In this document: positions 30,583-47,277 of the stretch, piece after piece
How positions within the stretch are numbered: the stretch's first letter is position 1
Layout of the letters: the number at the start of each line of letters is the position of its first letter
Assembly (NCBI GenBank): GCA_046116545.1
Contig: CP175956.1
Location: 449,734 to 513,733 of the forward strand
Direction of reading: 5' to 3'
Length of the DNA: 64,000 nt
Source of the DNA: Candidatus Moraniibacteriota bacterium
GTDB lineage: Bacteria > Patescibacteriota > Minisyncoccia > Moranbacterales > GCA-2747515
Notes under the pieces: model-generated
Told to the model about the DNA's origin: nothing
Database searches by the model: none
What the model saw: only the letters and a program-made list of their open reading frames with translations
Made by a program: the position numbers and the translations under genes

Positions 30583-31812
30583 ATGTTGAAGCAGTTTATG
30601 CAAAATAAATACAAAATAATAATAAATTATATAAAAAAACAATACAAAATATTCTCTTTGCGCAAGAAATTATTTGTTTTTGCTATTATTGCAGCACCTA
30701 TAACATCAACTGGTGTTGGAATGACTTTATATATAGATAATTCTGCTGAAATAATTCAATCTCCAATCTTTGAAAGTGAACCTGTTCTAAACTTAGATGA
30801 ACTACTCACTATCCGATTTAAAGAATCAATTAGTGATTCTCAAAAATATGAAAGCATGATATCTACTTATCCATCCTCTACTCTATCTTTTTTTTGGAAT
30901 ACAGATAACACTATGCTAAAAATTATTCCTAAAACTATTTGGAAGCCCGCTACAACCTATTCAATATCTTTTCCGTATAATTCATATGAATATACTACAG
31001 AAAAATCTATCTTATTTTCTTTTACTACTGTCCCCTACCCATCTGTACTTAAAACTTCTATTGATAATTCAAATAATTCATATGCCACAGTTAACAGCTC
31101 AATTGATATTCTTTTAGATAAGGAAATTGATAAATTCAATATACAAGTTGTTACAAGGCCTTTTATTAAAACTGAGCAAAATTACAATCCCACTAATAAA
31201 ATATTATCAATAAAAATTTTGGACTTAAATCCTGCTGAAAATTTCAAAACATCCCATTCTCTTACAGTATTTGCAAATCACAAAAGACAATCTAAGGCTA
31301 GCTTCTATCCTATTTACTCTTCTACTTTTAATACTATTTTAGAAAAACCCTCATCTTGGCCTACTGCACACGCAGAAAGATTAACTCTCTCACAATCAAC
31401 AACTGCACCAAAAATAAAAAAAGGGAAGTATATAGATATAAATACGGAAGCTCAAATAACTACATTATTTGAAAATGGAGAAGGTGTTAAAAGTTTTGTA
31501 AATTCAACTGGAGCAGATGACACTCCAACCCCACTTGGTGAATTTGAGATTTATAATAAACATCCATATGCACTCTCAAATATGTTTCAAGTATATTTAC
31601 CATACTGGATGGCTTTTACAGAAGATGGCTTGTATGGTTTTCATGATCTAATTGTATGGCCAGAAGGTCATGAAGATAAACCAGAAGGTGGCAAAGAAAG
31701 CCTAACAAGTATAGGTAATGCTGTTTCTCCTGGATGTGTTCGTCATGATGCTCAAAATTCACAATTTATATATGACTGGACTGACGTTGGAACAAAGGTT
31801 GTCATTTATTAA
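30583..31812 (+). CDS. L,D-transpeptidase (YkuD domain) with an N-terminal anchor and Ig-like region
   Basis: C-terminal catalytic motif HDLIVWPEGHE...SIGNAVSPGCVRHD (His ... SxGCxR). Confidence 0.7.
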   Translation: MLKQFMQNKYKIIINYIKKQYKIFSLRKKLFVFAIIAAPITSTGVGMTLYIDNSAEIIQSPIFESEPVLNLDELLTIRFKESISDSQKYESMISTYPSSTLSFFWNTDNTMLKIIPKTIWKPATTYSISFPYNSYEYTTEKSILFSFTTVPYPSVLKTSIDNSNNSYATVNSSIDILLDKEIDKFNIQVVTRPFIKTEQNYNPTNKILSIKILDLNPAENFKTSHSLTVFANHKRQSKASFYPIYSSTFNTILEKPSSWPTAHAERLTLSQSTTAPKIKKGKYIDINTEAQITTLFENGEGVKSFVNSTGADDTPTPLGEFEIYNKHPYALSNMFQVYLPYWMAFTEDGLYGFHDLIVWPEGHEDKPEGGKESLTSIGNAVSPGCVRHDAQNSQFIYDWTDVGTKVVIY

Positions 31813-31824
31813 AAATACTTCTAA

Positions 31825-31857
31825 ACAAAAAAGATATCTTTAAAGATATCTTTTTTG
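31825..31857. terminator. Bidirectional terminator between the convergent L,D-transpeptidase and ldh genes
   Basis: AAAAAAGATATCTTTAAAGATATCTTTTTT perfect palindrome flanked by A- and T-runs. Confidence 0.6.
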
Positions 31858-31878
31858 TTTTTATAAAAATTATTATAG

Positions 31879-32799
31879 TCAACTTATGCTATTGTATATT
31901 TCTTTTAATATATCCGCTGATTTTTTAAGATTTTTTTGCTCAGCTTCTGAAAGCTCAACACATATCCGCCCTATTATACCCCCAGACCCAATGACAGCTG
32001 GCATGCTAAGACATACATCTTCAACTCCATAAACACCCTCCACTAAATGTGAAACTGGCAATACTGTTTTCTTATTATGCAAAATTGCATTAATTAAATA
32101 AGAGGCTCCTGCACCGATTGCATAATATGTTGATTGTTTTCCCTCTATTATTGTATAGGCTGCATTTTTTGCTTCTTCAAAAATCTCATCTTTATCAAAA
32201 TTATTCAATCTTGTACAAGTTCCTAGCTTCATATTTCCAATAGCCGCTGTGCTCCAAACTGGAAATTCACTATCTCCATGTTCCCCAAGTATATATGCAT
32301 GTATACTTTTTGGATTAATATCTAGTTTTTGACCTATCAAATGACGGAATCTAGCCGAATCAAGAAGTGTTCCAGTTCCCAATATTTGATCTTTTTTATC
32401 AGGAAACATATCAATTGCCAGTTTTGTAAGTACATCCACAGGATTTGTAACCATCACAAGCACTATATTAGGATTTTTTTCAAAAATCTGAGGTAGGATT
32501 TGCTTCATGATAGATGCATTTTTCTCAACAAGTTGCAATCGAGTCTCACCTTCTTTTTGTGCAACACCACATGTAATAACTACGACATCACTATTTGCAC
32601 AATCATCATATGTCCCAGTATGCACATCTGTATTTCCTACAAAAGGTACGGCGTGTTGCAAATCCATAACTTGTGACTCCACAAGTTTTTCATTTATATC
32701 AATAATTGCAATCTCTTGGGCAATCTCTCGCATCACAAGTGAATGTGCAATAGTAGATCCAACCATTCCAGCTCCAATTATAGTAACTTTATTTTTCAT
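31879..32799 (-). CDS. ldh: L-lactate dehydrogenase
   Basis: MKNKVTIIGAGMVGST Rossmann fold, ITCGVAQKEGETRLQL (Gln at the substrate-specificity position indicates LDH rather than MDH), LGEHGDSE. Confidence 0.85.
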   Translation of the reverse strand: MKNKVTIIGAGMVGSTIAHSLVMREIAQEIAIIDINEKLVESQVMDLQHAVPFVGNTDVHTGTYDDCANSDVVVITCGVAQKEGETRLQLVEKNASIMKQILPQIFEKNPNIVLVMVTNPVDVLTKLAIDMFPDKKDQILGTGTLLDSARFRHLIGQKLDINPKSIHAYILGEHGDSEFPVWSTAAIGNMKLGTCTRLNNFDKDEIFEEAKNAAYTIIEGKQSTYYAIGAGASYLINAILHNKKTVLPVSHLVEGVYGVEDVCLSMPAVIGSGGIIGRICVELSEAEQKNLKKSADILKEIYNSIS

Positions 32800-32809
32800 A
32801 TTTTTTTGT

Positions 32810-32845
32810 TATGTAACATGCTACGTAACATACTACGTAACAAGT
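32810..32845. repeat. Three tandem 12-bp repeats (TAYGTAACAWRY) directly upstream of the ldh start
   Basis: tatgtaacatgc / tacgtaacatac / tacgtaacaagt, each containing the TACGTA palindrome. Confidence 0.6.
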
Positions 32846-33043
32846 ACAGTTTTAATATTATTTTTATATAATAACATAGAATTAAAAACAGTCAGAATCA
32901 TTCGAGCCGCTTTTTTGCTAGATAATTGTCTAGCATCTGCATACACATTTCCAAATCACCTGCCTAGTGAGGTCTCTGCACTATTTTTGATTGAACAGAC
33001 ATAACTCAAAACAATAATGCATCACCTCGCACTCTTTGAATCT

Positions 33044-33964
33044 CTACTCATTAAATAATTTATTTATATTTCGTTGTAAAGCTTGATATCCAATATCCTT
33101 TTGTACTTCCTCCATCAACTTTTGATATTGTTTTTTACCAATTAATTCTTTTTTATCATTAAGTATGCTCGAAAGTAGGTCAATATTTTTTTTATATATA
33201 TCTACAAGTTTATCTTTTCCAATAACCTCAGCATATTTTTGAAATGATTCTAATTGCAATAAAGATTCTTCTAATAGTTGAATTTGGATGTGATGTGTTG
33301 CAAGAGTTTTATTTTTTCGTTCTACCCATAAATCCATAATATCTCGAATTGTTTTTCGATCTGCAATTAATATCACGCGAGGAATATTTGATTTTTGACC
33401 TTTGAAATCTTGTGATTCTGAATAAAAGTAATCCATTTTTGTGAGGTGTCCCGCATCAATATTTTGCTTCGTACGTTCTAATTTTTTATTAATTCCCTCA
33501 ATGCTTGTTGCAACATCAAACCCGAGTGCTAAATGTGCCACAAAATTCTTCTCATCTTCAAATTCAACCACCCCATCAACCCCATTAACGATATCATCAA
33601 ATGCTGTTGGAATAATTACTTGTGCATTTTCACCAAACCAAGCATTCATGTCAATTCCATCTAACACCATTGCTTCAAAAACTTTTCCCACCTTTTGATG
33701 CGTTTCCCAGCCAAAGGATTGTTTTATCTTACCATTATTAGCATCCTCAAATTTTTGTTTAAGCTTTGTTACATATGCCTGATCACGTTCAATGCGAGCC
33801 TTGTCGTATGGACCACTATCTGGATCATTTGTTTTAATAAAAATATCATATGGAATAGCATCTTTAAAAATATCGTCAGACATCTCTAATGCAGTAGATA
33901 ACTGTGGATATCCTTCAGGATCACGAGATTCAGGTTTTTTATAAGGATTTTCAAGGTTAAACAT
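33044..33964 (-). CDS. Hypothetical protein
   Basis: 306-aa hydrophilic ORF with no recognised motif. Confidence 0.45.
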   Translation of the reverse strand: MFNLENPYKKPESRDPEGYPQLSTALEMSDDIFKDAIPYDIFIKTNDPDSGPYDKARIERDQAYVTKLKQKFEDANNGKIKQSFGWETHQKVGKVFEAMVLDGIDMNAWFGENAQVIIPTAFDDIVNGVDGVVEFEDEKNFVAHLALGFDVATSIEGINKKLERTKQNIDAGHLTKMDYFYSESQDFKGQKSNIPRVILIADRKTIRDIMDLWVERKNKTLATHHIQIQLLEESLLQLESFQKYAEVIGKDKLVDIYKKNIDLLSSILNDKKELIGKKQYQKLMEEVQKDIGYQALQRNINKLFNE

Positions 33965-34132
33965 ATTTATAATATTATCAAATTAGCGTTTTTACGAAAA
34001 CGTACACTTACTATAATAAATTTATCATCTAATATCAACTTTTACTATACCTATGATATTAAATATTTCAAATGTATTCTTATTATTTACACACTTCGGA
34101 CTGTGTTTTTATTTTTGAATTCTAAATTAAGC

Positions 34133-34222
34133 CTTTCTTCACTTGAAAGTGGTTTTTTATTTTCAAATTCTGGATCAAGCATTGTCTCGGGACAAAATTT
34201 TTGTAAATATAATTTATCAATG
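34133..34222 (-). pseudogene. Duplicated fragment of the nrdG 3' end (about 80 bp, roughly 90% identical to 34679-34760)
   Basis: Minus-strand translation gives VIDKLYLQKFCPETMLDPEFENKKPLSSE, compared with nrdG DKLYLQKFRPETTLDPEFENQKPISSE. Confidence 0.6.
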
Positions 34223-34376
34223 ACTCTTTTTTTAAAAAATAACCCTAACTAGTTAACTCTTTTTTTTCTTATTTCACATCTAGAAAACACTCTTTACAAA
34301 ACAATATTTTTATGTAAAAATATATATTCCACTTAGGAGACACTAGTTCATTTCTATTACTTTAGGAGGTTTTATT

Positions 34377-34562
34377 TTGAAAGAAAATAAATTTGAAATA
34401 TGGCAAGAGGCTACGCACAGTGCCTTACTTGATACTAGGCAGTGCCCCTGTGCCAGTGGTGATATTGAACATTGTTTTTTATCACTGCCTATTGAAGCAC
34501 AGACTGATTTATACGAGGATGATCCTGTAAACTGTTTTACGCAAATATACTTGAGTAGCTAA
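34377..34562 (+). CDS. Small SEC-C-motif-like metal-binding protein (61 aa), GC-richer than its surroundings
   Basis: QCPCASGDIEHCF resembles the SecA C-terminal / YecA-like CPCxSGxxxxxC[CH] motif. Confidence 0.3.
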   Translation: MKENKFEIWQEATHSALLDTRQCPCASGDIEHCFLSLPIEAQTDLYEDDPVNCFTQIYLSS

Positions 34563-34614
34563 CCTCAGCTAAATAAAAAAACGATTGTTTATACAAATAA
34601 TCGTTTTTTCTTTA

Positions 34615-35322
34615 TTATTGTCTGATATGAACTTCTTGTATATTTGCATCTTGGAAAATCTGAATATATTTTTGCATTTTTTCACTTGAAATTGGTTTTT
34701 GATTTTCAAATTCTGGATCAAGTGTTGTCTCGGGACGAAATTTTTGTAAATATAATTTATCCGCACCACTTACCAACTCACTCATTTCTTTTATGATTTC
34801 TTCAGTATGTACACCCTCTATTACTGTTGTGCGAAATTCATATGGAACTGTTCCCTGTTTTAAAAATTCTATACTTTCTTTTATATTGTCAGGATTAACC
34901 ATTTTTCCAACCAAATTTTCATAATTATTTAAAGTTGTTTTCACATCCATTGCTATATAATCAATTAATCCATCGTTAACTAAGTCTTTCATTATATTTG
35001 GCAAATTTCCATTTGTATCTAATTTTACCAAAAATCCCATTTCTCGTACTTTTTGGATGAATTGTCGCAAATCTGGTTGTACAGTTGGCTCTCCACCCGA
35101 AATTACCACGCCATCTAATTTACCTCGTCTGCTTTCTAAAAAATTCAAAACTGCTCTTTCGGGGATAAAACTAGGGCGTAATTTTTTAATTTCTTCTGGT
35201 AAAACAAATTCTTTATTGTGACAAAAACCGCACCGCATATTACACCCTGGAGTAAATATGATTGCTGCTACTTTTTCTGGATAATCCAGCATGGTAAATT
35301 TCTGTACACCACTTATAAGCAT
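34615..35322 (-). CDS. nrdG: Anaerobic ribonucleoside-triphosphate reductase activating protein (radical SAM)
   Basis: CNMRCGFCHN (CxxxCxxC) near the N-terminus; sits adjacent to nrdD. Confidence 0.8.
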   Translation of the reverse strand: MLISGVQKFTMLDYPEKVAAIIFTPGCNMRCGFCHNKEFVLPEEIKKLRPSFIPERAVLNFLESRRGKLDGVVISGGEPTVQPDLRQFIQKVREMGFLVKLDTNGNLPNIMKDLVNDGLIDYIAMDVKTTLNNYENLVGKMVNPDNIKESIEFLKQGTVPYEFRTTVIEGVHTEEIIKEMSELVSGADKLYLQKFRPETTLDPEFENQKPISSEKMQKYIQIFQDANIQEVHIRQ

Positions 35323-35404
35323 TGCTTGATATTTATATATTTATCAGTCTTCATGAATATGAATTTTCACAAAGACTGGATAATCACACAAATTTAGCTA
35401 TCTT

Positions 35405-35593
35405 TTAGTTACCAAATTTTTCTGTAAAATCATCATTTGCACAAGCACACTCTTGAAAATGTTTACGAGAATAATGTTCTGATTTTTTACCAGTATTAAA
35501 AAATGATACTGGGCGAAAATACCCCATTACCCTTGTCCATACTTCGCAACGTGTTCGCTCTCCTTCCTTCATTTGGATCTTTTGTGATACCAT
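35405..35593 (-). CDS. nrdD: NrdD C-terminal glycyl-radical segment encoded as a separate in-frame ORF
   Basis: CEVWTRVMGYFRPVSFFNTGKKSEHYSR matches the class III RNR glycyl-radical motif (RVxGY ... FNxGK). It is in the same frame as 35636..37753, separated by 14 codons containing two TAA. Confidence 0.6.
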   Translation of the reverse strand: MVSQKIQMKEGERTRCEVWTRVMGYFRPVSFFNTGKKSEHYSRKHFQECACANDDFTEKFGN

Positions 35594-35635
35594 ATGTTTA
35601 TTTTTACTTAATTAATTATTTTTTATTAATAAATC

Positions 35636-37753
35636 TTATTTATCTGCCTCTGTGCTTTGATATCTTCCCCTAAACTCTGCATCACAATAACTTTTATTTT
35701 TTATTCCTATTTCTTCATCACATTTCGGACAAAAATCATATTCTCCTTTCAAATATCCATGTTTTGGGCATATTGAGAATGTTGGTGTAATTGTAATGTA
35801 TGGAAGCTTATAATTTGTCAAAATCTTTTTCACAAGATTTGCACAGGCCTCTCCAGAACTCACTCTTTCATTCATGTACCCATGTAATACTGTTCCTCCA
35901 GTATACATTGTTTGCAATTCAGATTGTAAATCTAGTGCTTCAAAGATGTCATCTGTATATCCTACTGGTAGCTGAGTTGAGTTTGTATAATACGGAGCTT
36001 CTTCTGTCCCTGCCTGTATAATTCCCTCGTATTGCTTTTTATCTTCTTTTGCAAATCTATATGTTGTTCCTTCTCCAGGAGTTGCTTCTAAATTATACAT
36101 ATTTCCAGTTTCTTCTTGAAATTCTGACATTTTTTCTCGGATAAACTCCATTGTTTCTTTTGCAAACTCTAACCCATATTCAGAAGCTATATTTTCTTTA
36201 TCATCTGTAAAGTTACGTATTGATTCATTTACTCCATTTATCCCAATTGTTGAAAAATGACTATCTAATTTGCCTAGGTATCGCTTTGTATATGGAAATA
36301 GTCCTCTATCCATCCATTTAGTAATAACAATTCTTTTCATTTCTAATGATGCTTTTGCTAGTTCCATTAAATGAGTAATTCTTGCAAAATAGGCTTCTTT
36401 ATCGCCAGCACAAGTTTTTCCAATTCTTGCCATATTTAATGTTACAACACCAATTGAGCCAGTCATCTCTGCAGAGCCAAATAATCCCCCACCTCGCTTA
36501 CGCAACTCCTTTAAATCAAGTTGTAACCTGCAACACATTGAACGAACATCACTAGGATCAAGATCTGAATTTATAAAGTTTTGAAAATATGGAGTTCCAT
36601 ATTTTGCAGTCATTTCAAATAATGGCAATACTTTTGAATCCTTCCAATCAAAGTCTTTTGTTATGTTATACGTTGGAATCGGAAATGTAAATGTACGCCC
36701 TTTTGAATCACCCAGCATCATTACCTCAATAAATGCTTTGTTTACGATATCCATTTCTGCTTGGAGTTCTCCAAATTTATGTGCAAATGGCTCACCTCCG
36801 AGAATTAGTGTTTTTTCTCTTAAATCATCTGGACAAACCCAATCAAGCGTAATATTTGTAAAAGGAGTCTGTGTTCCCCACCTTGATGGAATATTTAAGT
36901 TAAATACAAATGATTGGATATTTTGATATACATATTTATACAAAGTTTCTGAAACATAGCTTTCTTCATCTTTTTTTGTAGCAAAGTTCATGTTATATTT
37001 TTCGATTGCCTCTCGTATTTCATTTTCCTTTTTTTTCACAAATGGAGCTAAATATGTATCAAAACTAGAAAATGCCTGTGCTCCAGCCCACTCATTTTGT
37101 AATGTTCCCAGAAAATTAACCATTTGAGATACGGCACTTGTTAGATGTTTTGGTGGATTTGATTCTACTTTATTAGAAACTCCATTAAAACCCTCTTCTA
37201 GCAACGCTCGTAAGCTCCACCCAGCACAATAACCACTAAACATATCTAGATCATGTATATGTAAGTCAGCATTTCTGTGTGCTTCACCTATAGCCTTTGG
37301 ATAAATATGAGATAACCAATAATTTGCTGTAACCTTCCCTGCTGTATTTAGAATCATTCCACCCAGTGAATATCCTTGATTTGAATTTGCATTTACACGC
37401 CAATCTAATTGATCTAAATATTCACCAATAGTCTTATCAACATCCACCATTACATTTTTATCTTCTCGTGCCTCTGTCCGCTTCTGCCTATATAATATGT
37501 AGTCTTTTGCTACTTGTGGATAATTACTGTGTATTAAGGAGTCTTCTACAGCATCTTGTACTTCCTCCACTGAAGGAATTTCATCAGAATACTCCTCAGA
37601 AAGCTTTGTTTCAGCATATTTTGCTATTTTTTTTGCTTCCACTTTTTTTGTGGGATTTGAAGCTATAGCCGCTTTTTCTATAGCATTTTCTATTTTTTCA
37701 ATATCAAAATCAACAATTGTTCCATTTCTTTTTTTTATCTTATGAATTGCCAT
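35636..37753 (-). CDS. nrdD: Anaerobic ribonucleoside-triphosphate reductase (class III), lacking the glycyl-radical tail
   Basis: N-terminal ATP-cone (MAIHKIKKRNGTIVDFDIEKIENAI) and C-terminal zinc ribbon CPKH...CPKC in 705 aa. Confidence 0.88.
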   Translation of the reverse strand: MAIHKIKKRNGTIVDFDIEKIENAIEKAAIASNPTKKVEAKKIAKYAETKLSEEYSDEIPSVEEVQDAVEDSLIHSNYPQVAKDYILYRQKRTEAREDKNVMVDVDKTIGEYLDQLDWRVNANSNQGYSLGGMILNTAGKVTANYWLSHIYPKAIGEAHRNADLHIHDLDMFSGYCAGWSLRALLEEGFNGVSNKVESNPPKHLTSAVSQMVNFLGTLQNEWAGAQAFSSFDTYLAPFVKKKENEIREAIEKYNMNFATKKDEESYVSETLYKYVYQNIQSFVFNLNIPSRWGTQTPFTNITLDWVCPDDLREKTLILGGEPFAHKFGELQAEMDIVNKAFIEVMMLGDSKGRTFTFPIPTYNITKDFDWKDSKVLPLFEMTAKYGTPYFQNFINSDLDPSDVRSMCCRLQLDLKELRKRGGGLFGSAEMTGSIGVVTLNMARIGKTCAGDKEAYFARITHLMELAKASLEMKRIVITKWMDRGLFPYTKRYLGKLDSHFSTIGINGVNESIRNFTDDKENIASEYGLEFAKETMEFIREKMSEFQEETGNMYNLEATPGEGTTYRFAKEDKKQYEGIIQAGTEEAPYYTNSTQLPVGYTDDIFEALDLQSELQTMYTGGTVLHGYMNERVSSGEACANLVKKILTNYKLPYITITPTFSICPKHGYLKGEYDFCPKCDEEIGIKNKSYCDAEFRGRYQSTEADK

Positions 37754-38045: not shown

Positions 38046-38738
38046 TGTTCCACGTGGAACAGTCTTAACTATACCTCCTAAATAGCTCTATAATTATTTT
38101 TCTTTAACTTTGTTCCACATGGAACAAAGTCTCTTGCATTACATTAATTTGCCCATGACATTCAAAATTGTTCTACGTGGAACAATCTCCTAATTGATTT
38201 ATCTTACAAAGTAATACCAATCCATGTTCCATGTGGAACATTTTATTGTTTACACTGTATTTTCTGTTCAATTTTTATAAAATTTTGTTCTACGTGGAAC
38301 ACCTCAGTGCCATTCATGCGCTCTCATTTAAATATTTGCACTCTGTAATGTTCCACATGGAACATTATACGATTTTCTGAGTTACTGAGTAGCGTTTTTA
38401 CATAAATTGTTCCATGTGGAACAATTTACCAGTTTTCTCCTATAATATGATCATTAGTTTACTACTAGATGTTCCACATGAAACATCTTCTTATTTCTAT
38501 TATCGTAATAGTCAAACTTGGTATTTAATAGTTCTACGTGGAACAAGTACATTATCTTACTCTTTTTCCTTAATTTATATTCCAAACAACTATTTTAATT
38601 CTATAAAGACATCTTTTACATTAAATGTTCCATGTGGAACATTATTAATAGGGAAGTATGTTTAAAAGTTCCACGTAGAACATCTCCCTTATATTTTTTA
38701 AATGAGATTATATAACTTGTATAGTTCTACGTGGAACA
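38046..38738. repeat. Array of 12 parS-like 16-bp palindromes (TGTTCCACGTGGAACA) spaced about 60 bp apart
   Basis: Copies begin at 38046, 38111, 38169, 38225, 38286, 38349, 38408, 38470, 38530, 38626, 38667 and 38723. The core matches the ParB-binding parS consensus tGTTtCACGTGaAACa, and the spacers between copies are unique. Confidence 0.75.
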
Positions 38739-38765: not shown

Positions 38766-38794
38766 TTGACATATTAGTATAAATATGGTATAAT
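38766..38794 (+). promoter_or_regulatory. Perfect-consensus sigma70 promoter (TTGACA-17-TATAAT) upstream of tRNA-Arg, rbfA and nrnA
   Basis: TTGACA at 38766-38771 and TATAAT at 38789-38794. Confidence 0.5.
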
Positions 38795-38878
38795 ACTTGT
38801 ACGACGTACAGTGCCGGAATTCTATGGTTGTATTATACGTAGTTTTATGCTACATTTATTAAACAATTTAGTGTAAAT

Positions 38879-38950
38879 GTCCCGGTAGTTCAATGGATAG
38901 AACAAGTCCCTCCTAAGGATTAGATAAAGGTTCGACTCCTTTCTGGGACA
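38879..38950 (+). tRNA. tRNA-Arg (anticodon CCT)
   Basis: GTCCCGG/CTGGGAC acceptor, anticodon loop CTCCTAA, T-loop AAAGGTTCGACTCCTTT. Confidence 0.85.
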
Positions 38951-38975
38951 CATTATATAATTAAACATAACCATC

Positions 38976-39302
38976 ATGAGTGATAGAATGCGAAAAGTTA
39001 ATTCCGTTATCCAACGAGAGATGTCTGAATTAATTATGAAGAAAGTTGATTTTAAGCCTGGTGTTTTTGTAACTATTTCCAAGGTTGACACTACTAGTGA
39101 TCTCATGTATACTCGTATATTCGTTCGAGTATTTCCCCAAAAAGATATTAATTATTCAATGAAGACACTCGAGCATGAAAGAATTGCCATGCAGAAATTA
39201 TTACATAAAAAACTACATTTAAAAGTTTTACCTAAAATATCATTTATACATGATCAAGGAGGTGATGATATTGATGAATTAGAAAAACTTTTGCAACAAT
39301 AA
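38976..39302 (+). CDS. rbfA: Ribosome-binding factor A
   Basis: RKVNSVIQREMSELI ... PGVFVTISKVDTTSDLMYTRIFV in 108 aa. Confidence 0.8.
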   Translation: MSDRMRKVNSVIQREMSELIMKKVDFKPGVFVTISKVDTTSDLMYTRIFVRVFPQKDINYSMKTLEHERIAMQKLLHKKLHLKVLPKISFIHDQGGDDIDELEKLLQQ

Positions 39303-39346: not shown

Positions 39347-40321
39347 ATGTCAAAACAGTATTTTTTGAAAGAATTTAATACACTTAGTTATATATTGCAA
39401 AGTTCTAGCAATATTCTTATCATTGGACACTCAAGTCCTGATGCTGATGCTGTAGGTAGTATAGTTGCACTACGTGAATTCATAAAAAAACATTATTCAG
39501 CAGATGTAACACTTGGTTGTTATGATGCTTTTCCGAAATCTTTAATGACTCTCATTCCAGATACTTTTCTCATACATCCTGAAGATTTAGATATTACATC
39601 ATTTGATGTAATTATTGGTTGTGACAGTGTTGATAGGGGATTCAATGATGTAATTAAAGATGCTTCAGATTCTTGTGTTACAGTAATAATTGATCATCAT
39701 CATGATACTATCACTAGAGCTGATTTGTTCATGAATGATGCTAATTATTCCTCAACTTGTGAAATATTATATAATTTTTTTAAGTTCACACATAAATCCA
39801 TTACAAAAAATATTGCAACAGCACTCTTAGCTGGCATCATTTTTGATACAGGAGCTTTTCAACACTCTAATACAACTGCTGAAACACTTTCAGCAGCCTC
39901 AAATTTAGTGAAGGGTGGTGGCTCTATAACAAAAATAAACAGAGCTCTGTTTTCTAATAGAAATGTAGAAACACTAAATTTGTGGGGAAGAGCACTTGAG
40001 CGAACAAAATTTCATAAAAAAACAGGCCTTGCTGTTGCAGCAATAACAACCGATGATTTAAATGGCTATTTAATAAATTCAGGAGAAATTTCAAATATTG
40101 CTTCCATGCTTACAACAGTTCCTGATGTACGAGCTGCTCTAATAGTATATCAATCCGATCCCAACACAATAAAGGGGAGCTTACGCGCTGAAAAGCATGG
40201 TGGTATTGATGTTTCTGCAATTGCACACACACTTGGTGGTGGTGGGCATAAATTAGCAAGTGGATTTTCTATTCCCGGAAAAATAAAAACTCTTCCTAAT
40301 GGTAATTGGAAAATTGTATAA
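39347..40321 (+). CDS. nrnA: DHH-family phosphoesterase NrnA (oligoribonuclease / pAp phosphatase)
   Basis: IIGHSSPDADAVGS, DHHHDT and GGGGHKLASG (DHHA1). Confidence 0.8.
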   Translation: MSKQYFLKEFNTLSYILQSSSNILIIGHSSPDADAVGSIVALREFIKKHYSADVTLGCYDAFPKSLMTLIPDTFLIHPEDLDITSFDVIIGCDSVDRGFNDVIKDASDSCVTVIIDHHHDTITRADLFMNDANYSSTCEILYNFFKFTHKSITKNIATALLAGIIFDTGAFQHSNTTAETLSAASNLVKGGGSITKINRALFSNRNVETLNLWGRALERTKFHKKTGLAVAAITTDDLNGYLINSGEISNIASMLTTVPDVRAALIVYQSDPNTIKGSLRAEKHGGIDVSAIAHTLGGGGHKLASGFSIPGKIKTLPNGNWKIV

Positions 40322-43889: not shown

Positions 43890-44873
43890 CTAAACTTTGT
43901 AGTTATCAACATATTTCAATAAGGCACTAAATCTATCTGGATAATTAGCTTCAAAATTATATTCTTCTCCATTTAATTTAAAAGCCAACTCCTTAGCATG
44001 TAGATAAAATGTGCTTGGATCATATTCTTTAAATTCACTCAAATCTATTTGTCTCTCATTTTTTGTATAATATCTTTCATCACCTACAAGAGGATGTCCT
44101 TTATGTAACATATGTACTCTTATTTGATGAGTTCTTCCTGTCTTAGGTTTTACTTCTACACATGCAACCTGTAATGCTTCTGATAAATTATATTCAGATA
44201 TTACATTGTATTCTGTTTGAGCTTCTTTTGAATCACCTTTATATCTACCAAAAGCTATTTTTTGCTTTGTGTATGAAGTTGCTCGTGCTATTGGAGCATC
44301 TATTAGTCCATTTAATTCATCAAAAAGACCAAAAACTATAGCATGATATGTCTTTTGAATCTCTCTTTTTTGAAAAAGTTCCTTTAATTGATCAAAAGTC
44401 TCTTGGTTTTTAGCTATAACCATAAGTCCTGTAGTATCTTTATCAAGTCTGTGTACTATACCAGGTCTTTCTTCATCATCACCTACACCAGAAATCTCTG
44501 GGAATATAGCTAAAAGTGCATTTACAAGGGTTTCTTCTCGCTCTCTATGGCTTGGATGTACTTGTAATCCTCTTTGTTTGTTTATTATTGCAAAATTTTC
44601 ATTACTCTCCAAAATATCTAATACTATATTTTTATTTGGTACTATTTTATCATCTTGTTCTTCAAATTCACCCATTGTTATAATTTCATTACCTTTAAGT
44701 TTATAACTAGGTTTAACCTTTAAATCATTAACTAAGACGACTTCTGTCCGAATCATTTTTATTATTTCACCCCTTGTCCTATCCTCATTTTTTTTAGCTA
44801 AGAATTTATCTATCCGAATTCCTTTGTTTTTCTCTTCTACATTTATAATTTCATTCATAATATTATATTTCAC
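43890..44873 (-). CDS. rluD: RluA-family 23S rRNA pseudouridine synthase (RluD-like)
   Basis: S4-like N-terminus; catalytic motif HRLDKDTTGLMVIAKN. Confidence 0.85.
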   Translation of the reverse strand: MKYNIMNEIINVEEKNKGIRIDKFLAKKNEDRTRGEIIKMIRTEVVLVNDLKVKPSYKLKGNEIITMGEFEEQDDKIVPNKNIVLDILESNENFAIINKQRGLQVHPSHREREETLVNALLAIFPEISGVGDDEERPGIVHRLDKDTTGLMVIAKNQETFDQLKELFQKREIQKTYHAIVFGLFDELNGLIDAPIARATSYTKQKIAFGRYKGDSKEAQTEYNVISEYNLSEALQVACVEVKPKTGRTHQIRVHMLHKGHPLVGDERYYTKNERQIDLSEFKEYDPSTFYLHAKELAFKLNGEEYNFEANYPDRFSALLKYVDNYKV

Positions 44874-45837
44874 TAATTACATCAAAACCTTTTACACTTC
44901 CTACAATAGCATACCCAAATACATTTTGTGCCACATTATTTCTTTTACACTTACAGGCGAGTTGCTCCAAAGTTGCTCCAGAACCCACAGCATCATCAAT
45001 TATAAGTATGTTGTCATATTCACCTTTATCATCCACGACCATTGTTTCTTTTGCATTCTTTATACGATCATCAATTTTTGAAAGTGTTTTTTGTGGCACT
45101 ACAATTTCACCATGTACTTTAACAATATTTATTACTGGTAAAGCAATATTTAATTCATCTTGTAAAATACGCATGAATTGTATTTTACGATCAATAGATG
45201 GTGGTGCAAATCCAATTGCTTGTATATTTTCTTTTTTTATTATAGACAATACATCATCTTTTATCATTTCTACAACCTTTTTTATCATTTTTCTATCTTG
45301 ACTTTGTTTTGAATACATTACTAGTTGTCCTATTTTTGTCTTACCAAAAATTTCCCATGCATAGAACTCACTATAAAATACATCGTTAATACATTTAGTG
45401 TTAAAAACTTTATGCATTTTCACTGTACCTTTGATTAAATTATTCTCTTTATATTGTTTATATTTATCATAAATATCACAATATTCAACAGCTTTTTTAC
45501 TTATATCAAAATCTCTTTTGTCACACCAGATTCTAAAACCATTTAAACCATCCGCTTTTTCTCCATTTGGCATGATATAAAGAAAGTTTTTTTCAATAAT
45601 ATCACGCTTTTGTTGATCTATCTCAATTTTTACATCAACAAACTCTTTTTTATTTTCACTTGGAAAATAATATACACGTGGTGGGGAACCTCGTTTTAGA
45701 ACACTCTTTTCTTCTATAAGTTTTTTAAGATGTCGTTGAACCATTGCTCGAGTTAATTGAAATTCATTAATTAATTCAATTACCGTTGCTTGTTCCTTTT
45801 CTTGAATATATTTCAATATCTTATCACGAGAAGACAT
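44863..45837 (-). CDS. Winged-helix HTH domain fused to a type I phosphoribosyltransferase domain (PurR-like architecture)
   Basis: N-terminal ILKYIQEKEQATVIELINEFQLTRAMVQRHLKKLIEEK; C-terminal PRPP-binding motif ILIIDDAVGSGATLEQL. Confidence 0.55.
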   Translation of the reverse strand: MSSRDKILKYIQEKEQATVIELINEFQLTRAMVQRHLKKLIEEKSVLKRGSPPRVYYFPSENKKEFVDVKIEIDQQKRDIIEKNFLYIMPNGEKADGLNGFRIWCDKRDFDISKKAVEYCDIYDKYKQYKENNLIKGTVKMHKVFNTKCINDVFYSEFYAWEIFGKTKIGQLVMYSKQSQDRKMIKKVVEMIKDDVLSIIKKENIQAIGFAPPSIDRKIQFMRILQDELNIALPVINIVKVHGEIVVPQKTLSKIDDRIKNAKETMVVDDKGEYDNILIIDDAVGSGATLEQLACKCKRNNVAQNVFGYAIVGSVKGFDVISEI

Positions 45838-46041: not shown

Positions 46042-46645
46042 TTATCCACTTATCAACAAGTTATCCACTTTTTCAATAATATATTAATTTCATATTAGTT
46101 ATTTATAAGGACATGTCCTTGAGGCTGTCCTCGTATTATATATACATAATGGGTACAAGGAACAATACTACAATGAGTGCTAGTTATTTAGAAATGGTAT
46201 GAAGAAATATTATAAAATATCGTCTTTGCGAGTAGTAGTATTCTTTATCATGATCTACGAAGCAATATCAATAAGATTACTTCACATTATTATATTGAAA
46301 ATAGCTTTTATCTGCAAAGACAATGCTATTTTTCAAAACTAATTATACAAAAAGTTTATTGAAAACTTATACTTACTACGTTTTAAACGCACTTACTAGT
46401 TATGCTACTAGTTTTTAAGTATAATAAAAAACTAGGAGGGACATTGTTTCTTGAGATAAAAAAATATAAGATTTTTGCATTATTTACACTTTTTCCTTTT
46501 TAAGTTTATGGTTATCAACAGAAAACTGTGGATAACCTGTTAATTATGTGGATAACTTCTTGTGGATAACTTTGTATATTCTTGTGCACAATATTCCATT
46601 GTTGTGGATAACTATACATTATTTACACTTTTTTAGTTATCCACA
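46042..46645. promoter_or_regulatory. Putative chromosomal replication origin (oriC): a DnaA-box cluster in a 1.4-kb AT-rich intergenic region
   Basis: TTATCCACT at 46042 and 46061; TGTGGATAA at 46527, 46547, 46561 and 46613; TTATCCACA at 46637; TTATCAACA at 46512. An AT-rich DUE-like stretch lies at 46738-46790. Genes to the left run on the minus strand and genes to the right run on the plus strand. Confidence 0.6.
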
Positions 46646-47277
46646 TTTAGCAACACATATACACACCCTTACACACATGTCTTATTTTTGTGTTATTTAC
46701 TACATTTTTCCACAATATTCACTTATACATACAGTAATAGTAATAATAAATTATATATATAATAAGTTATTATATTACAGATTCATTCTATGTCTCAAAA
46801 TATATATCAACTAAAAAACATCTCCGATTCATAACCATCTATTAAAATAAAATTGGAGTAGTTATTATTTAGATTTAATAGTGTAATCTTACAGAGAAAA
46901 GATTTTTAATATAATAAATAATGAAATTAGTTATCACATGTTTTTTTTCTAGTAGGATTAATATTATTTACTTATCTATTTAGTATATAAAATCATTTAT
47001 ATGGAAACTAAACTATAATAGTTCAATAATAGACTAACATATTGTTATGTTGCAGCTAATAAATAAAATAGGCACATAAACAGTCAGTATATGAAAGCTA
47101 AACATTTTCAGAATAATATATTATTGAAGTTAGTTTCAAATTAAGATTTGATATAAACTGTACAATTATGGTATTGACAAAATATATAAAGTATGCTATA
47201 GTTTAATGTTGTTGAGATAGTTCTCTAAAAATTTAAGATAAATCTATTATTTCGTCTATTGGCGAAAAGGGGATGTT

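Follow-up and report, generated by a model that had tools for sequence, protein, structure and literature searches.

The question raised by positions 38046-38738 of a 64,000-nt stretch of a Candidatus Moraniibacteriota chromosome (contig CP175956.1; the whole stretch is referred to as the window) is why twelve 16-bp palindromes resembling parS, the binding site of the partition protein ParB, should be packed into 0.7 kb. An earlier reading of the letters, here called the first-pass annotation, had likened this locus to the centromeres of plasmids and phages. On the basis of sequence comparisons, we think it probable that the array is instead an origin-proximal chromosomal centromere, a compact cluster of 12 parS sites in a Moranbacteria-like member of the Patescibacteria, and we predict that it serves as a ParB loading site. 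The parS reading at the core of this proposal is well supported because of the identity of the motif, its proximity to the origin, its conservation in relatives, the slow change of the sites and the adjacency of parB to such arrays elsewhere.

The window was scanned for matches to TGTTCCACGTGGAACA with three mismatches or fewer. Exactly 12 were detected, all in fact with two or fewer and all within 38046-38738, compared with 0.15 expected by chance, and none of 100 shuffles gave 12, in agreement with the twelve copies in about 700 bp counted by the first-pass annotation. No further copy was present in the rest of the window or in the 6-10 kb flanks beyond it, making the array the sole such locus in ~80 kb. 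One site is free of mismatches; seven carry a single mismatch and the other four carry two. The array and its sites, none of which has a strand assigned, are given below, together with two bases that differ in another strain, L123.

38046-38738, whole array: 12 parS-like 16-bp palindromes with unrelated AT-rich spacers (25% GC), non-coding
38046-38061, site 1, TGTTCCACGTGGAACA: perfect, two half-sites intact
38111-38126, site 2, TGTTCCACATGGAACA: G9A, left half-site intact
38169-38184, site 3, TGTTCTACGTGGAACA: C6T, right half-site intact
38225-38240, site 4, TGTTCCATGTGGAACA: C8T, right half-site intact
38286-38301, site 5, TGTTCTACGTGGAACA: C6T, right half-site intact
38349-38364, site 6, TGTTCCACATGGAACA: G9A, left half-site intact
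38408-38423, site 7, TGTTCCATGTGGAACA: C8T, right half-site intact
38470-38485, site 8, TGTTCCACATGAAACA: G9A and G12A, left half-site intact; G at position 12 in strain L123
38530-38545, site 9, AGTTCTACGTGGAACA: T1A and C6T, right half-site intact
38626-38641, site 10, TGTTCCATGTGGAACA: C8T, right half-site intact
38667-38682, site 11, AGTTCCACGTAGAACA: T1A and G11A, left heptamer intact; G at position 11 in strain L123
38723-38738, site 12, AGTTCTACGTGGAACA: T1A and C6T, right half-site intact

Deviations from the consensus are confined to six positions, namely C6T (four sites), C8T, G9A and T1A (three each), and G11A and G12A (one each), while G2, T3, T4, A7 and their symmetry partners are invariant in all 12. 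The variants CACATG, CATGTG and TCTACG described earlier are present, along with GTAGAAC, GAAACA and a leading A. No site lacks a perfect GTTCCAC half-site, and all but one of the 12 have exactly one. Of the 16 perfect copies of this heptamer that the 64-kb window contains, 13 fall inside the 0.7-kb array.

Measured from start to start, the sites follow one another at 65, 58, 56, 61, 63, 59, 62, 60, 96, 41 and 56 bp. The first eight intervals are regular (60.5 ± 2.9 bp), so the even spacing noted in the first-pass annotation stands, but the helical phasing proposed with it does not, the mean resultant length being 0.10 at a 10.5-bp period (Rayleigh p ~0.9). The term tandem array likewise holds only loosely, for a short palindrome interspersed with unrelated spacers; Tandem Repeats Finder returned no repeat. 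The spacers (25-80 bp) do differ from one another, as had been stated, with only faint traces of unit duplication among them (families D6 and D8). No decayed thirteenth site was found in the 96-bp gap, which contains no 16-mer with seven or fewer mismatches. The longest stop-free stretch across the array is 90 codons under genetic code 11. A hidden open reading frame (ORF) under an alternative code was considered and rejected, as reading TGA as sense extends this to 94 codons at most.

The 12 copies fit the 16-bp parS palindrome tGTTNCACGTGNAACa, each with two or fewer mismatches to TGTTCCACGTGGAACA, which is identical to the Myxococcus xanthus parS consensus TGTTCCACGTGGAACG at 15 of 16 positions, differing in the last base. 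M. xanthus ParB binds TGTTCCACGTGGAACG in electrophoretic mobility shift assays, as a single site as well as within a 22-site, 3-kb cluster (PMC3899335, PMC3778016). The core match to parS proposed in the first-pass annotation is borne out: judged by its letters, the window motif is the canonical chromosomal parS.

Dense arrays of this 16-mer turned out to be widespread. A collection holding one genome for each of 185,579 species was scanned for three sites at 41-71 bp spacing, and at least 120 bacterial loci, mostly in metagenome-assembled genomes (MAGs), had the pattern. The matches listed come from the Acidobacteriota, Bacteroidota, Planctomycetota, Verrucomicrobiota, Bdellovibrionota, Myxococcota, Bacillota, Actinomycetota, Gammaproteobacteria, Omnitrophota and Patescibacteria, and some arrays are bigger than that of the window, with 26 sites in 1.5 kb at L056 (4518-5998) and 58 sites in 3.6 kb at L120 (289-3881). 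When parB genes were re-derived using real ParB ORFs from these loci as queries, 47 of the 120 loci listed had parB in the same 8-kb block as the array, with the nearest site at a median of ~1 kb and, in nine loci, within ~100 bp. Two of the 47 genes are annotated ParB/RepB/Spo0J with PF02195 and PF17762. The distance between array and parB in these 47 loci is within ~2 kb. By our own estimate, parB would turn up in well below 1% of 8-kb blocks taken at random. Because of this association, we take the dense 16-mer arrays across phyla to be parS arrays. Over all arrays the pitch is mostly 37-71 bp and rarely below 37 bp, without an overall helical period, a distribution biased by the scan itself, which demanded 41-71 bp for three sites per locus. 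The scarcity of pitches below 37 bp is consistent with simultaneous occupancy of adjacent sites.

The array fills much of the region between two divergent transcription units, in the vicinity of a candidate replication origin:

35636-37753, minus strand: nrdD (ATP-cone and NRDD domains by Pfam), left neighbour of the array, not a conserved neighbour
38766-38794, plus strand: sigma-70 promoter at the right boundary, TTGACA-17-TATAAT with TG extension, 12/12 consensus, upstream of tRNA-Arg(CCT)-rbfA-nrnA
38879-38951, plus strand: tRNA-Arg(CCT), driven by the 38766-38794 promoter
38976-39302, plus strand: rbfA; its operon borders the array in relatives as well, as a conserved neighbour
39347-40321, plus strand: nrnA (DHH/DHHA1, nrnA-like), same operon as tRNA-Arg and rbfA
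46042-46714, no strand: DnaA-box cluster, candidate oriC, five perfect TTATCCACA boxes and near-matches, at the cumulative GC-skew minimum

The intergenic region that holds the array is 1.1 kb long, and the perfect-consensus promoter said to follow the array is indeed there. The DnaA-box cluster, correctly placed about 8 kb away by the first-pass annotation, is 7.3-8 kb from the array and occupies a 1.4-kb intergenic region adjoining type IV secretion genes. A second, smaller cluster (L124:4780-4908) lies in the rnpA/dnaA intergenic region ~5 kb past the right end of the window. The two clusters are ~22 kb apart, and either one is a candidate oriC, or they may form a bipartite origin. With coordinates converted from L124, dnaA-dnaN are ~6-9 kb past the right end of the window and dnaA is ~31 kb from the array; no DnaA domain was detected in Pfam scans of window ORFs of 120 aa or more. 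Since the array is near both the 46042-46714 cluster and dnaA, it is origin-proximal whichever cluster is oriC, in a genome that, judging by its group, we estimate at ~1 Mb.

Comparison of the window with strain L123 (L123 positions 1-360 against window 38396-38738) revealed that the sites change more slowly than the DNA between them. Across the six shared sites, 2 of 96 positions differ (2.1%), compared with 28 of 238 spacer positions (11.8%) and a further 25 gap columns (9- and 16-bp indels), a ~5.6-fold difference (Fisher p = 0.005). The rbfA gene of L123 is identical at 327 of 327 nucleotides, though it is only 240 bp from the array, and the spacers must therefore be hypervariable or exchanged by recombination. 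In addition, the chance that no site would be hit twice, given 11 damaged halves among 24, is ~0.01 by our own arithmetic.

The first-pass annotation had pointed to related genomes as a comparison, and there the array proved to be conserved. Moranbacteria, Parcubacteria or similar genomes account for ~20 of the 120 matches listed, and the group has more than 20 array loci when further relatives are added. Relatives at 40-72% RbfA identity have 7-18 sites beside tRNA-Ala/tRNA-Arg-rbfA-nrnA, and the order array, tRNA-Ala(GGC), tRNA-Arg(CCT), rbfA, nrnA is kept in many relatives at 40-47% protein identity to the window. The wider order S1-cmk-tilS-ftsH, TSP3, array, rbfA-nrnA is maintained in distant relatives. 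The closest named fragment, from a Candidatus Moraniibacteriota MAG (L018; RbfA 72%, NrnA 60% identity), ends within a perfect 3-site array. A metagenome search with NrnA gave three closest contigs (67-75% identity) that stop at or before the expected array position and, because the contigs of the nearest relatives end there, the equivalent locus is seen in none of them except L018. On one of the three (L132:152-589; NrnA 70%), an IS200-like (Y1) transposase is directly upstream of tRNA-Arg, at the expected array position, and the contig ends just past it.

In most of these relatives the sites are within a coding region. The gene-embedded form consists of 7-18 mostly perfect sites, all inside one ORF of ~500-730 aa, for which one example and the other loci with it are:

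L067:1907-4024, minus strand: parS-studded Wzy_C-like gene; also in L084, L102, L035, L099, L096, L043, L050, L119, L082, L071, L033, L041, L089, L004 and L141-L145

The encoded protein belongs to the O-antigen ligase family, as three of four tested members scored above the Wzy_C (PF04932) threshold and NCBI homologues are named 'O-antigen ligase family protein'. The ORFs align among genomes in conserved hydrophobic blocks (with, for example, PHPNILGGF, TFSKSA, WQFQPVHN and FDHYxWDIQQGQ), and the site clusters sit in the variable stretches between them. The 16-mer TGTTCCACGTGGAACA is stop-free in every frame, and embedded sites are translated in all three, as FHVE (67), VPRGT (65) and CSTWN (47), which indicates that the DNA 16-mer is conserved and not the peptide. 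Taken together with the strain comparison, this shows that it is the 16-mers that are under selection, and not the spacers or an encoded peptide. For embedded neighbours less than 100 bp apart (n = 141), the spacing modulo 3 was 1 for 102 pairs, 2 for 35 and 0 for 4, so that adjacent sites almost never share a reading frame, whereas non-coding arrays are unbiased (10, 21, 20). One idea is that embedded arrays grow by three-unit modules. In the further relatives L142-L145, the 20-kb contexts contain the studded gene without rbfA beside it and with sites restricted to the gene.

The studded gene is absent from the array locus of the window, where a search for remnants gave only trivial matches via parS-encoded peptides; the Wzy_C genes that the window does have are paralogous only, at 61-63.8 kb. 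A second, independent lineage has a similar arrangement, with non-coding arrays in which 7-12 sites recur every 52-65 bp, again upstream of the tRNA, rbfA and nrnA genes:

L136:16-742, non-coding array
L137:888-1717, non-coding array
L138:1714-2212, non-coding array

Sites with exactly one perfect GTTCCAC half and a transition in the other half account for 11 of the 12 window sites, for all 12 sites of L136 and for 11 of the 14 in L137, unlike the gene-embedded sites, nearly all of which are perfect. The window array is best read as a gene-less form of a centromere that is embedded in a gene in most of the order.

The loss of the gene and the damage to the sites could also mean that the array is a decaying relic, the non-functional remains of a parS-studded Wzy_C gene eroding under AT mutation pressure after ParB was lost or while a working centromere exists elsewhere. 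The substitutions are of the expected kind, with C-to-T or G-to-A changes in 11 of the 12 sites (and T1A at the outermost base of three) in a genome of 30% GC, and both site differences from L123 represent the window strain moving off the consensus that relatives retain almost perfectly; parB was not found near the array. Deamination of the central CpG would explain the C8T and G9A changes but none of the others. Yet decay does not easily explain why the sites change ~5.6 times less than the spacers or why no site has lost both halves, and the slower change and the retained half-sites argue against a dead relic. The membrane-spanning coding blocks are wholly gone, yet 12 sites are kept at a regular ~60 bp, and the lineage of L136-L138 has independently the same kind of non-coding, half-intact array. 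We consider a relic improbable.

The position of the array invites a different explanation, that the palindromes are iterated operators of another dimeric regulator, controlling nrdD or the tRNA-Arg/rbfA operon, or sites for a nucleoid-organising protein unrelated to ParB. The array does fill the divergent promoter region, with its last site ending 28 bp before the consensus -35 element, and the lack of a nearby parB would fit this explanation too. However, the motif is exactly the canonical parS found beside parB in 47 of the 120 loci listed, nrdD adjoins the array in none of the relatives examined, most relatives have their sites in the coding region at least 380 bp from the tRNA promoter, and the arrays of L142-L145 are not beside rbfA. 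A second copy, as in a regulon, was also missing from the ~80 kb scanned. Operators thus seem very unlikely.

We rate still lower an element acting as RNA. This could be a set of hairpins serving as transcription terminators or as insulators, or an array processed into guide RNAs as in CRISPR or TIGR-Tas systems. Three sites with T-rich tails score as intrinsic-terminator-like on the plus strand, where 0.5 would be expected, and the palindromes of the window extend into the site flanks in a copy-specific manner (permutation p = 0.0006), but this extension is absent from the pooled 756 sites. The RNA fold z-score of -12.7 is trivial for palindromes. Rfam gave no match at the array, and in relatives the same 16-mers are read in three frames within an ORF of the opposite strand. 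TIGR arrays do occur in genomes of the candidate phyla radiation (CPR) and consist of two alternating ~10-nt edge/loop repeats with 8-12-nt spacers, accompanied by Nop-domain Tas proteins, with ParB-like proteins encoded at some loci (PMC12045711). The window array resembles them in its short repeats interspersed with variable sequence and in its occurrence in CPR. The alternating repeats, the 8-12-nt spacers and a Nop-domain Tas are not found at the window array, which has one 16-bp palindrome and 25-80 bp spacers, and the Pfam scans reported neither a Nop nor a Cas domain in window ORFs of 120 aa or more. A TIGR-Tas array was accordingly rejected, with a single palindromic repeat and no second repeat family, as was a CRISPR array, for which the conserved unit is too short (16 bp, against ~23-47 bp for CRISPR repeats, whose spacers are uniform in length) and no Rfam direct-repeat match was obtained.

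Least credible of all is a centromere belonging to an integrated mobile element (plasmid, phage or conjugative element), for although the iterated layout recalls sopC of the F plasmid and a type IV secretion cluster (VirB4, VirB6, PrgI, pilin) is 9 kb from the array, the three-site pattern occurred in 0 of 2.9 million viral contigs, a blastn search of 72,556 plasmids with the array gave no match, rbfA, nrnA, rplS, tRNAs and rluD stand between the array and the secretion genes, the gene order around the array is kept in distant relatives, and partition genes are missing beside it. For this motif, these results and the at least 120 loci in bacterial genomes do not support the plasmid or phage character that the first-pass annotation thought typical of such a layout. 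A sopC-like tandem centromere was rejected as well, given that head-to-tail units including the spacer, a mobile replicon and par genes alongside are all missing.

Several observations weigh against a chromosomal centromere. The deviation of 11 of the 12 window sites from consensus, when the sites of relatives are nearly all perfect, means that some of them may load ParB poorly, and weak putative parS sites in Caulobacter show little enrichment in chromatin immunoprecipitation (ChIP) (PMC5815017). As the first-pass annotation had remarked, the window has no recognizable partition genes; Pfam scans of its ORFs of at least 120 aa detected neither a ParA nor a ParB domain, and a GERRxxA motif was missing from all six frames. 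Extending the search past the window, by ~6 kb on the left and ~10 kb on the right, revealed neither parA nor parB. Nor was parB detected by tblastn with ten real ParB queries (E ≤1) in the 8-kb blocks of ~20 CPR arrays, or within 10 kb of the array in the 20-kb contexts of three further relatives, in contrast to the 47 of 120 among all loci listed. In a profile search for ParB in a set of 5.8 billion proteins, the best 120 matches were all non-CPR ParBs. An adjacent soj-parB pair is nonetheless present in a cultivated patescibacterium, S. epibionticum, where transposon sequencing classed the genes as growth-defect or essential (PMC10633639 supplement). A canonical parS that is perfectly conserved over an order would be hard to explain without a canonical ParB.

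We infer that a ParB is present in this genome and binds the sites, including the half-damaged ones, and that clamp loading has the same consequences as in model organisms. In ParABS systems, a ParB dimer that has recognised parS and bound CTP closes into a clamp and slides away, such that parS is a catalytic loading site, and the partition complex is moved by ParA and loads SMC (PMC10786196). At the window array, each palindrome would be recognised by dimers of a canonical ParB whose gene would lie elsewhere in the genome; the dimers would bind CTP, close into sliding clamps and move onto the flanking DNA. Twelve loading sites in 0.7 kb would be expected to increase the loading rate and the local concentration of ParB, giving a single partition complex beside oriC that ParA would move and that could also load SMC. 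The array itself would be the gene-less remnant of an arrangement with sites in the loops of an O-antigen-ligase-like gene. An extension of this model, which we put forward as speculative and on the whole unlikely, is that in this CPR order the centromere normally resides inside a gene, either coupling the origin to the membrane (transertion) or reflecting a distinct mode of building and enlarging a centromere, with the window holding a derived gene-less, fast-evolving, half-intact array that may use non-canonical loading or an unusual or distant ParB. The studded gene could provide such coupling because transcription, translation and membrane insertion would be simultaneous.

Dense chromosomal parS clusters are already known from M. 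xanthus, and clusters ~8 kb from the origin from Caulobacter. In M. xanthus, 22-24 sites occupy ~3 kb of DNA located ~4 kb upstream of parA and ~30-35 kb from the origin (PMC3899335, PMC3778016), and the statement in the first-pass annotation that chromosomal parS sites are normally few and scattered overstates their rarity, as those 22-24 sites in 3 kb illustrate (PMC3899335). Reviews give 1-4 parS sites per species, rising to at least 20 (PMC10786196). M. xanthus is the closest precedent, with many copies of a near-identical 16-mer in a short origin-proximal stretch of chromosome, but the window array has fewer sites, is about twice as dense (one site per ~60 compared with ~140 bp) and is not beside parAB; furthermore, 11 of its 12 sites are half-degenerate and its host is an ultrasmall CPR bacterium. 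Caulobacter crescentus has at least five strong parS sites ~8 kb from the origin and tolerates new sites only near the existing cluster (PMC5815017). The distance from the origin is similar and sites of graded quality coexist in both organisms, although those of Caulobacter are spread over kilobases among or next to the par genes, rather than in a 0.7-kb array. If new sites are tolerated only near an existing cluster, as in Caulobacter, local expansion of an array would be explained. In Pseudomonas aeruginosa, ChIP sequencing has detected ParB at GTTCCAC half-parS sites, which are scattered over the genome and do not support spreading (PMC10419367). Every window site keeps at least one copy of this heptamer, the unit that ParB occupies there in vivo, but the intact halves of the window are arrayed and paired with a near-consensus second half, whereas those of P. 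aeruginosa are scattered.

Two other systems share part of this layout. The sopC locus of the F plasmid comprises 12 tandem repeats of 43 bp, and every repeat includes a 16-bp inverted repeat to which SopB binds. It is similar to the window array in its twelve palindromes of 16 bp, iterated at short and regular intervals, from which sopC nucleates one ParB-family partition complex. It is, however, a true tandem repeat that includes the spacers, has another motif and is found on a plasmid beside sopAB, whereas the window has unrelated, hypervariable spacers and a chromosomal parS and context. For Bacillus subtilis, Lin and Grossman reportedly described parS in 1998 as TGTTNCACGTGAAACA, located mostly inside genes. 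This belongs to the same consensus family, and intragenic sites are also present in the relatives of the window organism, but the B. subtilis sites are single and distributed over hundreds of kilobases, compared with 7-18 in one gene.

Three aspects appear to be new, as they were not found in the searchable literature: parS or ParB in Patescibacteria, gene-embedded arrays read in three frames, and the breadth of dense arrays across phyla. Chromosome segregation is essentially unstudied in the Patescibacteria, and the array, as the likely centromere of one such genome, is a concrete target for work on ParB. Dense parS arrays are common across phyla, and gene-embedded and gene-less forms coexist in Moranbacteria/Parcubacteria. 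Tran et al. asked how centromeres expand and what drives the expansion (PMC5815017); together these forms provide a natural series for addressing this, and allow one to ask how degenerate parS may be and yet load ParB.

The window as a whole has ~30% GC and includes, besides the type IV secretion genes (VirB4, VirB6, PrgI and pilin; 47-60 kb), SET and NYN domain proteins and small housekeeping genes. Its proteins recur on metagenome contigs (JGI 3300082323 and 3300083231; NCBI GCA_0086332xx). To the left of the array, a block comprising ykuD, ldh, an unknown gene, nrdG and nrdD (30583-37753) separates it from the TSP3-repeat gene; this looks like a lineage-specific insertion because in relatives the TSP3 gene directly adjoins the array-bearing gene. 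Within and beside the block are two short coding fragments:

34135-34218, minus strand: 28-aa fragment downstream of nrdG, 82% identical to the NrdG C-terminus
35405-35593, minus strand: 62-aa ORF directly downstream of nrdD with an NRDD Pfam match, which suggests a split-off C-terminal piece of NrdD

On the right, the ~85-nt leader between the promoter and tRNA-Arg (38795-38878) is strongly conserved between strains and sits where relatives have tRNA-Ala(GGC); ARAGORN finds no tRNA in it. Finally, the gene adjoining the 46042-46714 DnaA-box cluster (44863-45837, minus strand) encodes a ComF-like protein of 324 aa, in which a winged-helix domain at the N-terminus is combined with a phosphoribosyltransferase-like motif, ILIIDDAVGSGATL, at the C-terminus.

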